Origin: Escherichia coli O157:H7
GTDB lineage: Bacteria > Pseudomonadota > Gammaproteobacteria > Enterobacterales > Enterobacteriaceae
DNA length: 64,000 nt
Direction: 5' to 3' (one strand)
Assembly (NCBI RefSeq): GCF_013167455.1
Contig: NZ_CP038328.1
Shown: positions 38,188 through 46,603 of the stretch, one piece after another
Position numbering within the stretch: position 1 is the stretch's first letter
How the letters are laid out: each line of letters opens with the position of its first letter
Notes under the pieces: model-generated
Database searches by the model: none
What the model saw: the letters and a program-made list of their open reading frames with translations, nothing else
Told to the model about the DNA's origin: nothing
Position numbers and translations under genes: made by a program

Positions 38188-38299
38188 CCCCGGCTAGACC
38201 GGGGTGCGCGAATACTGCGCCAACACCAGGGAAATCTTGGCTGCGCCGTAAATTATTATGATGAGTTACAAGGGCACTGCACTGTTTTTCAGGCCGCAC
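38179..38299 (-). ncRNA. arcZ: Hfq-dependent small RNA ArcZ (SraH/RyhA)
   Basis: minus-strand sequence GTGCGGCCTGAAAAACAGTGC...GGCGCAGCCAAGATTTCCCTGGTGTTGGCGCAGTATTCGCGCACCCCGGTCTAGCCGGGGTCATTTTTT matches ArcZ as I recall it; 3' hairpin plus U-run overlaps the arcB stop codon. Confidence 0.8.
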
Positions 38300-38416: not shown

Positions 38417-39070
38417 ATGAAGAAAATTGGCGTAATTCTGAGCGGATGCGGCGTCTATGACGGTTCTGAAATTCATGAAGCGGTGTTGACGTTGTTAGCT
38501 ATTTCACGCAGCGGTGCGCAGGCGGTCTGCTTTGCACCGGATAAGCAGCAGGTTGATGTTATCAATCATTTAACTGGCGAAGCGATGACGGAAACGCGCA
38601 ATGTGCTGATTGAAGCGGCACGAATAACGCGCGGTGAAATCCGTCCTCTGGCCCAGGCCGATGCCGCTGAACTGGATGCGTTGATTGTGCCGGGGGGGTT
38701 TGGCGCGGCAAAGAATTTAAGCAATTTTGCCAGTCTTGGTCGCGAATGCACCGTTGACCGTGAATTAAAGGCGCTGGCACAAGCGATGCATCAGGCCGGA
38801 AAACCGCTTGGTTTTATGTGTATTGCCCCGGCGATGCTGCCGAAAATTTTCGATTTCCCGCTGCGTTTGACCATCGGTACTGATATCGATACCGCAGAAG
38901 TGCTGGAAGAGATGGGCGCGGAGCATGTGCCGTGTCCTGTCGATGATATCGTGGTTGATGAAGACAATAAGATTGTCACCACCCCGGCATATATGCTGGC
39001 GCAGAACATTGCAGAAGCGGCGAGCGGCATTGATAAGCTGGTTTCCCGCGTGCTGGTTCTGGCTGAATGA
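38417..39070 (+). CDS. elbB: Glyoxalase ElbB (DJ-1/PfpI family)
   Basis: 217 aa from ATG 38417 ([21 protein letters not shown]...). Confidence 0.85.
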
Positions 39071-40637: not shown

Positions 40638-40910
40638 TTAATCTTCATCAAAACCAGAATTAAAGAGGGCGATAACGGCGGCCAGTGCTTCCTCTTCCTG
40701 TGGACCGGTCGCTTCAACTTCAATCTGCCGTCCTTTGGCAGAATCCAACATCAGCAGCGCAATAACGCTGTTGGCTTCAGCCTCGGTGCCTTCGTCATTA
40801 CGTAACAGCACTTCAGCGTCAAAACCCTGCATTAATTCAAACAGCTTCATTGCAGGCCGGGCATGCATGCCCAGCTTGTTTGTGATTTCAACAGTTTGCT
40901 TGACAGTCAT
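40638..40910 (-). CDS. npr: Nitrogen-PTS phosphocarrier protein NPr
   Basis: 90-aa HPr-like protein with the active-site His context GMHARPA. Confidence 0.9.
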
Positions 40911-44206: not shown

Positions 44207-44932
44207 TCAGAGTCTGAAGTCTTCCCCAAGGTATACACGCTTAACGTGTTCGTCTTGTAAGATTTCTGTAGGCGTGCCGTGGGCGATCAAATGCCCCTGA
44301 CTGACGATATAAGCGCGTTCACAAACCGCCAGTGTTTCACGCACGTTGTGGTCAGTGATCAGCACGCCCAGGCCGCTGTCGCGCAGGTGCTCAATGATGC
44401 GTTTAATGTCGATAACTGAGATCGGGTCAACCCCGGCAAACGGTTCGTCGAGCAGAATAAATTTCGGATTCGCAGCCAGTGCGCGGGCAATTTCTACACG
44501 GCGACGTTCACCCCCGGAGAGTGACTGCCCCATGCTGTCACGCAGGTGCTCAATGTGAAACTCTTCCATCAGCTCGTTCGCGCGGTCTTCACGCTGTTCA
44601 GCAGACAAGTCGTCACGAATTTGCAGTACCGCCATCAGGTTATCGTAAACGCTGAGGCGACGGAAAATGGAGGCTTCCTGTGGCAGATAGCCGATACCGC
44701 GGCGCGCGCGTGCATGCAGAGGTAGCAGACTGATATCGTCATCATCAATAATGATGTTGCCCGCATCGCGCGGCACAATGCCTACAACCATGTAGAAAGT
44801 GGTGGTCTTACCGGCACCGTTTGGCCCCAGCAGACCGACAATTTCCCCGGAGTTGACGGTCAGGCTGACGTCTTCTACCACGCGACGGCCTTTATAGGCT
44901 TTTGCAAGGTTCTTTGCAGTTAATGTTGCCAT
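44207..44932 (-). CDS. lptB: LPS export ABC transporter ATPase LptB
   Basis: 241 aa; Walker [10 protein letters not shown]; signature LSGGERRR. Confidence 0.95.
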
Positions 44933-44938
44933 AACGAA

Positions 44939-45496
44939 TTAATTACCCTTCTTCTGTGCCGGGGTCTGGCCTTTGTTGTTTTTGTCCTGCAGCTGCGACG
45001 GCACCAGAACGGTGGTTACACGCTTGCCTTTGTCGCTGAAAGCCTGCATTTTCTGCTCTTTCACCAGGTAAGTGATCTTATCGCCCTTAATGTTGCTATC
45101 GACCTGCTGCAGATAAGCATTACCCGTCAGAACGACAAAATCTTTTGCCAGTTCGTAGTGCATCTGGGAAGCGTGACCTTCAACGGGTTTACCGTTGTCC
45201 TGCATCTGGTAGAACGTTGCCGGTTTACCGTAGCCGTCAATCACTTCTTTACCTTGTTCGCCACCCGGACGGGTAACGACCACTTTGTCGGCATTAATTT
45301 TTATGGTGCCCTGGGTGACGATGACATTACCGGTAAAGGTAACCACGTTGCCTTGCATATCAAGAGATTGCTGGTCCGATTCAATGTGTATCGGCTGATC
45401 AGTGTCTCCGGTTACGGCAAATGCCGGAATGCTGGCGGCCAGAAGTGAGCTGGCAAGCACAAGATTAAGGCTGAGTTTGTTTGTTTTGAATTTCAT
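44939..45496 (-). CDS. lptA: Periplasmic LPS transport protein LptA
   Basis: 185 aa from ATG 45496 with signal peptide MKFKTNKLSLNLVLASSLLAASIPAFA. Confidence 0.9.
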   Translation of the reverse strand: MKFKTNKLSLNLVLASSLLAASIPAFAVTGDTDQPIHIESDQQSLDMQGNVVTFTGNVIVTQGTIKINADKVVVTRPGGEQGKEVIDGYGKPATFYQMQDNGKPVEGHASQMHYELAKDFVVLTGNAYLQQVDSNIKGDKITYLVKEQKMQAFSDKGKRVTTVLVPSQLQDKNNKGQTPAQKKGN

Positions 45497-46040
45497 AGGA
45501 TGTTCTAACCTTTTCAATCAGCTCGGCGTTCTTGCTGCGTAAGTTGCCGCGCATTTTCAGACCGCTGGAGTTAAATGTTGTTCCGTATAACGTGACGAGG
45601 TCTTCAGAGGTAACATCCTGCGTCACCAGATTGATCTGCGCGTTATCCGTCGTGATTCTGCGAAGTTGAGAGTCCGGCACAAGTGCGTTGACTTCAACGT
45701 GTCCATATAAATAGAGCATCCGGTCATTGGTCAGCTTGGCTTTATCTGCTTTTACGGACCATGTCGGGATTTTATCCTTATCAAACGTGGTAAGTACCGG
45801 CTGCGTAAACCACGAAACGGCCTGATCGGAATAATATTCAACGTGTTGAGCAATCAATCGATAGCTTAGCGCCCCTTCTGGGTTATAGACGAGCGTGTCC
45901 GTATGCTCGCTTTTATAGGTGGGATCATTGTTGTTGACGACCACCTGGGCGGTATCGTCTTTTTCGGCCATATTAATACCGATCATCACCAGAACCGCCA
46001 GTGATAGCACAATGATAACCCAACGTCTGGCTTTACTCAT
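45465..46040 (-). CDS. lptC: LPS export inner-membrane anchor LptC
   Basis: 191 aa; N-terminal TM; 3' end overlaps the lptA start by 32 nt. Confidence 0.9.
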   Translation of the reverse strand: MSKARRWVIIVLSLAVLVMIGINMAEKDDTAQVVVNNNDPTYKSEHTDTLVYNPEGALSYRLIAQHVEYYSDQAVSWFTQPVLTTFDKDKIPTWSVKADKAKLTNDRMLYLYGHVEVNALVPDSQLRRITTDNAQINLVTQDVTSEDLVTLYGTTFNSSGLKMRGNLRSKNAELIEKVRTSYEIQNKQTQP

Positions 46041-46603
46041 ATCGATTGCCCTTTGGCTTCATCCAGTTTGCCCTGCGCCAGGAGTAATAAGTCGCAAACT
46101 TCTCGCACTGCGCCACGACCGCCAGCAATGCGCGTCACGTAATCGGCGCGCGGGATCAACAGTGGATGCGCATCGGCCACGGCGACGCTTAAACCCACTT
46201 TTTCCATTACCGGCCAATCGATGAGATCATCGCCGACATAAGCCACATTTTCCGGGGCAATCGCCAATTTTTCCAGCAGATCGCTAAAGGCGATCAGTTT
46301 GTTTGACTGCCCCTGATACAAGTGAGTGATCCCCAATGTGGCACAACGATCTTCTACCAGTTTAGCCTTTCGCCCGGTAATGATAGCGACTTCAATATCA
46401 GAGGTGAGCGCACAACGAATGCCATAACCGTCACGAACATTGAACGCTTTCAGCTCTTCGCCGTTATTGCCCATATAAATCAGGCCATCTGACAGTACGC
46501 CATCAACGTCGAGGATTAGCAGACGAATGTTCTCTGCTTTTGCTATAACGTCGGCGCTGACAGGGCCGTAACAGGTCGCAAGCGACGCACCTGCTTTGCT
46601 CAT
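46037..46603 (-). CDS. kdsC: KDO 8-phosphate phosphatase (HAD family)
   Basis: 188 aa; HAD motif LILDVDGVL; stop overlaps the lptC start (ATGA). Confidence 0.9.
   Translation of the reverse strand: MSKAGASLATCYGPVSADVIAKAENIRLLILDVDGVLSDGLIYMGNNGEELKAFNVRDGYGIRCALTSDIEVAIITGRKAKLVEDRCATLGITHLYQGQSNKLIAFSDLLEKLAIAPENVAYVGDDLIDWPVMEKVGLSVAVADAHPLLIPRADYVTRIAGGRGAVREVCDLLLLAQGKLDEAKGQSI

Follow-up and report, generated by a model that had tools for sequence, protein, structure and literature searches.

The lptC and lptA genes overlap in the window, by which we mean the whole 64,000-nucleotide stretch of Escherichia coli O157:H7 DNA that was analyzed. The encoded proteins are essential in E. coli and move lipopolysaccharide (LPS) to the outer membrane. 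On the minus strand, the operon has the order yrbG-kdsD-kdsC-lptC-lptA-lptB and is followed by rpoN. The junction comprises the following features:

46040 to 45465, minus strand: lptC coding sequence, ATG to TAA, 191 amino acids (open reading frame list, translation, NCBIfam, RefSeq)
45496 to 44939, minus strand: lptA coding sequence, ATG to TAA, 185 amino acids (translation, NCBIfam, RefSeq)
45465-45496, minus strand: DNA shared by lptC and lptA, 32 nucleotides read in two frames
45416..45496, minus strand: signal-peptide codons 1-27 of lptA (MKFKTNKLSLNLVLASSLLAASIPAFA; translation, first residues of PDB constructs)

An earlier reading of this DNA, made from the sequence alone, had named the two genes and given LptA a signal peptide, and our searches agree on both counts. 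LptC is a member of the NCBIfam equivalog family NF008142 (364.1 bits, cutoff 230, residues 1-191). It also matches the broad model TIGR04409 over residues 6-182 (176.7 bits, cutoff 38), and this model ends at Y182, the site of the lptA ATG. Residues 1-191 of LptC match LptC chains in the PDB, e.g. 6s8n_C. The family models considered for LptA were NCBIfam NF008143 / TIGR03002, and the protein belongs to the equivalog family NF008143 (368.4 bits, cutoff 234, residues 1-185). Both equivalog scores are thus far over their cutoffs. As read from the translation, the LptA signal peptide has three lysines in its n-region, a hydrophobic core and the residues AFA ahead of the cleavage site. Mature LptA in PDB constructs has residue 27 or 28 as its first residue, which agrees with a signal peptide of 27 residues.

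The frame of lptA is one base off that of lptC, according to both the coordinates and the translation. The final ten codons of lptC and the initial eleven of lptA occupy common DNA in different frames. In the lptC frame, positions 45465-45496 read as part of Y182, then EIQNKQTQP and the stop codon, while in the lptA frame they read MKFKTNKLSL(N). The lptA start is embedded at the lptC codons for Tyr182 and Glu183 (tAT Gaa). The 32-nt out-of-frame overlap proposed in the sequence-only reading is borne out by these coordinates and frames, and by RefSeq. The annotated K-12 coordinates, which that reading had suggested as a check, exhibit the same 32-nt overlap, with lptC at 3342836..3343411 and lptA at 3343380..3343937 in the RefSeq annotation of MG1655. 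The RefSeq record of O157:H7 PV15-279 has the same lptC/lptA arrangement as the window. Among 5426 complete E. coli genomes, 5425 carry a 101-nt lptC/lptA junction that is at least 99% identical.

The window as a whole aligns to O157:H7 PV15-279 in two collinear blocks with at least 99.9% identity. At about 21025-21029, it is without about 1.3 kb that PV15-279 has between nanR and dcuC, and this extra DNA is annotated in PV15-279 as an IS3-family IS1203 copy. Two matches at the Rfam gathering level are expected for this region of E. coli: the greA leader at 59799-59920 on the plus strand (127 bits) and the ArcZ sRNA at 38192-38299 on the minus strand (118 bits).

We studied the conservation of the overlap in 80 species of Enterobacteriaceae, with one locus each. 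These loci came from a genome scan with a 7-sequence LptA alignment, whose matches were in Enterobacteriaceae only. A separate sample covered ten loci from more distant gamma-proteobacteria, in which LptA identity is as low as 32%. The overlap is present in 80 of the 80 Enterobacteriaceae species, with a length of 32 nt in 75 species, 20 nt in three (L074 and L061 have overlaps of 20 nt each) and 17 nt in two. All 80 species use TAA as the lptC stop. The ten distant loci have overlaps of 14-41 nt according to their gene calls, and the phase is always the same:

14-nt overlap: L093
20-nt overlap: L085 (Grimontia), L087 and L091
23-nt overlap: L089
29-nt overlap: L088 (Aeromonas), L090 (Dongshaea) and L095
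32-nt overlap: L092
41-nt overlap: L094 (Aliidiomarina)

In distant taxa, automated calling of the start determines the overlap length, as the case of Aeromonas demonstrates. Here, LptA database entries use two starts (giving 175 or 180 amino acids), so that the overlap of L088 (2001-2029) is either 14 or 29 nt.

In every one of the distant loci, the lptA ATG takes the form NAT-GNN in the LptC frame, i.e., a Tyr or His codon and then a codon beginning with G. The aligned LptC codon that holds the ATG differs among lineages, however, and can be codon 176, 177, 179 or 182. For this reason, we rejected the idea that the conserved phase marks either coupling or an ancestral junction. A shared phase is in fact expected, because the other phase would need NNA-TGN, so that lptC would have to carry a codon for Cys or Trp, or else a stop.

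The overlap is dispensable, given that Serratia symbiotica, whose genome is reduced, lacks it. This 650-kb genome (locus L096, 352-2504) has the genes in the order lptC-lptB-lptA, all separate and without overlap. The comparison of sequences in the Enterobacteriaceae and beyond indicates that lptC/lptA is a genuine co-directional overlap, and not an artefact of annotation. That the arrangement is conserved, as the sequence-only reading had asserted, is clear from the 80 Enterobacteriaceae species and the ten distant loci.

A chance expectation was judged to be the wrong test for a gene junction. What matters here is whether lptA truly starts at ATG 45496. Past the last upstream stop, the in-frame start candidates are TTG 45517, ATG 45496 and GTG 45460. 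Initiation at the GTG would leave no overlap, and initiation at the TTG would extend it to 53 nt. A mis-assigned start is conceivable, in that both of these codons are in frame and past the last upstream stop, and the mechanical list of open reading frames opens lptA at TTG 45517. This list hides the junction, as had been remarked earlier. However, the lptA ATG is invariant, being found in every one of the 80 Enterobacteriaceae species. By contrast, in six of the 80 species, an in-frame TGA lies between the TTG (at -21) and the ATG, and distant taxa lack the TTG. Conservation of the GTG (at +36) is poor (46% for its last base, G45458), and a start at this codon would drop all three n-region lysines of LptA, leaving the signal peptide without its positive n-region. 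Moreover, the alignment of LptA to the NCBIfam equivalog begins at residue 1, and gene calls in the ten distant loci also put the lptA ATG within the C-terminal codons of LptC (aligned positions 176-182).

Because the ATG is conserved, whereas the TTG is broken and the GTG is variable, we take ATG 45496 to be the true lptA start on the basis of sequence conservation, and we regard mis-assignment to either of the other codons as very improbable. A downstream start without overlap, which the sequence-only reading had named as evidence that would refute its proposal, finds no support in an ATG found in 80 of 80 species and an unconserved GTG. The supplements of the INRI-seq study do not mention lptA.

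Dual coding has a cost, and the variation within the overlap suggests which frame bears it. The only commonly variable sites are 45489, 45486, 45483 and 45468, all of which are third positions in lptC and second positions in lptA. Among 79 distinct sequences, the LptC tail YEIQNKQTQP is unchanged in 70, while the LptA N-terminus occurs in 22 variants (F/S, K/R, T/I and others), in which positive charge is kept. Changes are absorbed by the n-region of the LptA signal peptide, and the amino-acid sequence is kept on the LptC side. The C-terminal strand of LptC is located at the interface with LptA, and Y182 is an LPS cross-linking site there (PMC5575297). Dual coding is tolerated because the LptA part of the overlap encodes only the tolerant, loosely constrained and lysine-rich n-region of a signal peptide that is cleaved off.

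Upstream of the lptA ATG, the 3′ end of lptC contains further features of interest:

45508..45513, minus strand: SD-like AAAGGT at -17..-12 from the lptA ATG, weak and farther from the ATG than optimal
45497..45579, minus strand: zone of raised synonymous-site conservation at the 3′ end of lptC (third-position conservation)
45557..45584, minus strand: candidate sigma-E-type promoter GGAACAA-N16-TCTGA, possibly lptAp1 (read by eye)

The best anti-SD duplex for lptA has an energy of -3.4 kcal/mol, which is among the weakest in the operon. The SD of lptC itself is modest (-4.4 kcal/mol). The sequence GAAAAGGT (45515-45508) is invariant in 79 of 79 distinct Enterobacteriaceae sequences, including at lptC third positions, and the distant locus L093 also has TAAGGT at -17..-12. 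The conservation of synonymous sites extends beyond this motif. In the 26 lptC codons at 45574-45497, the mean third-position conservation is 0.81, versus 0.53 elsewhere (Mann-Whitney p = 9e-8), and these codons form the top-ranked 26-codon window across lptC and lptA. We infer that the lptA 5′ leader and ribosome-binding region are located in 45497..45579, together with a portion of the internal lptAp promoters.

RNA structure does not account for the extra constraint on the leader. In the stretch of 113 nt around the lptA start, there is no significant fold (-22.6 kcal/mol, z = -0.62 relative to shuffled sequences), and an alignment of 28 species yields no conserved structure around the junction (-5.8 kcal/mol, zero covarying pairs). 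Positions -18..+12 of lptA are 73% A+U, with an opening energy of 4.0 kcal/mol. The other six start sites of the operon all require more energy, and this value ranks in the 1st percentile among all of the operon's 30-mers.

Within lptA, there is a second peak of third-position conservation at 45036-45065 on the minus strand (0.78 vs about 0.53), roughly 110-130 nt upstream of lptB. The peak could belong to a regulatory element for lptB-rpoN. However, the stretch is rich in K, E, Q and M, and the peak may only mirror codons that are two-fold degenerate.

Two minor promoters were previously found inside lptC, namely lptAp1, which is sigma-E dependent, and lptAp2 (PMC4986956). The sigma-E-dependent promoter reacts to defects in LPS biogenesis, and lptAB expression in LptC-depletion strains is driven only by lptAp1/lptAp2, although these two promoters alone were described as possibly insufficient in critical conditions (PMC4986956). 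The sequence GGAACAA-N16-TCTGA at 45584-45557 may be lptAp1. It departs from the exact sigma-E consensus (GGAACTT-N16-TCNRA-like), and it is poorly conserved at the -35 base A45582 (just 43%) and the -10 base T45561 (20%). A scan of 44800-46200 for sigma-70 promoters produced no matches, and a limited selection of the literature on sigma-E promoters does not name lptA.

An exact sigma-E consensus, GGAACTT-N17-TCTGA, occurs elsewhere in the window, at 63707-63735 on the minus strand. It is located at the ftsH stop and is oriented antisense into ftsH. About 0.16 matches to the exact consensus are expected per window. This match may be due to chance. The sole other exact match is at 59845-59872 on the plus strand, within the greA leader region.

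The window also contains six short stop/start overlaps of the -4 or -1 type:

46037-46040, minus strand: kdsC/lptC, ATGA, 4-nt overlap
25632-25635, plus strand: nanE/nanK, ATGA (annotation; junction string located in the window)
26504-26507, plus strand: nanK/nanQ, ATGA (annotation; junction located in the window)
39067-39070, plus strand: elbB/mtgA, ATGA, 4-nt overlap
51620 (shared base), plus strand: mlaC/mlaB, TAATG, 1-nt overlap
40907-40910, minus strand: rapZ/npr, ATGA, 4-nt overlap

Four of the ATGA junctions and the TAATG junction had been listed in the sequence-only reading, and all five were found at the expected junctions. The rapZ/npr overlap was absent from that list. In addition, the RefSeq annotation has a 4-nt tail-to-tail overlap between yrbL and mtgA.

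The sequence-only reading regarded the 32-nt overlap as a conserved translational-coupling arrangement, in common with these short junctions. Conservation was upheld, as described above, but coupling was an assumption, and the non-canonical spacing, the separate promoters of lptA and its open start do not favor it. The lptC/lptA spacing is -32 nt, which differs from the spacings of -4, -1 or a short gap that apply to termination-reinitiation. Coupling through RNA unfolding is also not indicated, as the lptA ribosome-binding site is not sequestered (z = -0.62; opening energy 4.0 kcal/mol).

Instead, lptA is probably initiated mainly independently at ATG 45496, with reinitiation being minor at most. 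Ribosomes would load on the A/U-rich, unstructured leader with its weak, distant and invariant AAAGGT, and they could load independently on both the long operon mRNA and the shorter lptAp1/p2 transcripts. The re-use of ribosomes ending at the lptC stop, 29 nt downstream, might make a minor contribution at most. We favor independent initiation because of the internal promoters, the open start, the constrained leader and data on synthetic constructs. In these constructs, coupling drops with overlap length between -4 and -25 nt, and there is none at -25 nt (review PMC12548453).

Some observations count against independent initiation. The construct result at -25 nt was obtained in a sequence context other than that of lptC/lptA, and studies disagree on coupling, according to the same review (PMC12548453). 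With its low duplex strength (-3.4 kcal/mol) and its distance of 12 nt from the ATG, the SD-like motif is a site of a kind that might gain from coupling. The persistence of the overlap over gamma-proteobacteria (14-41 nt) could mean that there is selection for co-expression. Moreover, given that lptAp1/p2 are possibly insufficient, most LptA comes from the long mRNA, on which lptC ribosomes cross the lptA start.

A rival explanation is termination-reinitiation coupling, in which ribosomes ending at TAA 45465-45467 would shift upstream by about 29 nt and begin again at ATG 45496. LptC and LptA are subunits of one machine whose genes are adjacent and co-transcribed, the overlap is held by all 80 Enterobacteriaceae species as well as the ten distant loci, and the lptA SD is weak, all of which would suit such a mechanism. 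The neighboring kdsC/lptC junction has a canonical ATGA, and evidence is on record for scanning by ribosomes after termination (PMC12548453). Nonetheless, the efficiency of coupling declines with overlap and coupling was absent at -25 nt in constructs (PMC12548453), while lptA is expressed from promoters within lptC, on transcripts without the lptC start (PMC4986956). No unfolding is needed at the lptA start, which is open as it is, and the overlap ranges from 14 to 41 nt among lineages, which implies that no particular spacing is kept. The shared phase is no evidence for coupling either, as the alternative would place Cys, Trp or a stop in the lptC frame. We therefore consider termination-reinitiation at this junction to be unlikely. 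It would tie LptA output to LptC output, and we likewise doubt that the two outputs are linked in this manner.

Another explanation, to which we assign a lower probability, is occlusion. Ribosomes elongating through the end of lptC could transiently cover the lptA start, since the lptA ribosome-binding region and start codon are entirely within translated lptC. The long mRNA would then give limited LptA, and the lptAp1/p2 transcripts would be translated better under LPS stress, a consequence that we also view as quite improbable. The sigma-E promoter inside lptC, which answers LPS-biogenesis defects (PMC4986956), would fit with occlusion, as would the strong extra constraint on the 80-nt leader. 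However, the argument is one of inference throughout, and plain independent initiation predicts the same features. Additionally, ribosome traffic over the lptA start may be light, as the lptC SD is only modest (-4.4 kcal/mol).

A further reading would view the overlap and the internal sigma-E promoter as a device with two modes. In this scheme, lptC ribosomes on the operon mRNA would set or limit lptA translation, transcripts from lptAp1 would escape this limit under LPS stress, and the constrained 80-nt leader in lptC would encode the behavior. We see only a slim chance that this is correct. Independent initiation at ATG 45496 is the reading that we prefer.

The overlap has practical implications. 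Deleting, truncating or recoding the 3′ end of lptC also hits the lptA start, n-region and ribosome-binding region, as well as the internal promoters. This carries practical weight because the Lpt bridge is a target for antibiotics and the object of much engineering. The overlap raises no new question, but lptC/lptA offers a clean, conserved case in which a long overlap should not automatically be taken to mean translational coupling. In an unrelated system, the overlapping genes of a restriction endonuclease and its regulator are reportedly translated independently, which is a precedent for overlap without coupling.

The 32-nt lptC/lptA overlap is already known, as it is both annotated and published: Benedet et al. 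(2016) report it in print (PMC4986956). The locus is that of lptC (b3199) and lptA (b3200) in K-12, studied by the Sperandeo/Polissi laboratory, with the same 32-nt overlap and with lptAp1/p2 (PMC4986956). There is no difference from K-12, and the window represents another E. coli strain with the same feature. What we add is minor: the breadth of conservation, the identity of the cost-bearing frame, the constrained leader within lptC, and the separation of this -32 overlap from -4/-1 coupling motifs.

Like the canonical -4 ATGA and -1 TAATG/TGATG overlaps (Huber et al. 2019, 2023; PMC12548453), lptC/lptA is co-directional and occurs in an operon for one complex. It differs from them in that the lptA start is 29 nt upstream of the lptC stop, the two are unfused and 32 nt are dual-coding. 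Promoters and an SD-like motif of its own further set it apart. There is also a likeness to the longer co-directional, out-of-phase overlaps (Johnson & Chisholm 2004, in PMC12548453), in the length of a few tens of nt and in a start codon that takes the form NAT-GNN in the upstream frame. Over 80% of overlapping pairs share <30 bp (review PMC12548453), which places lptC/lptA in the minority tail. Many long overlaps are annotation errors, whereas lptC/lptA is backed by wide orthology. Its cost at the protein level falls on the n-region of a signal peptide.
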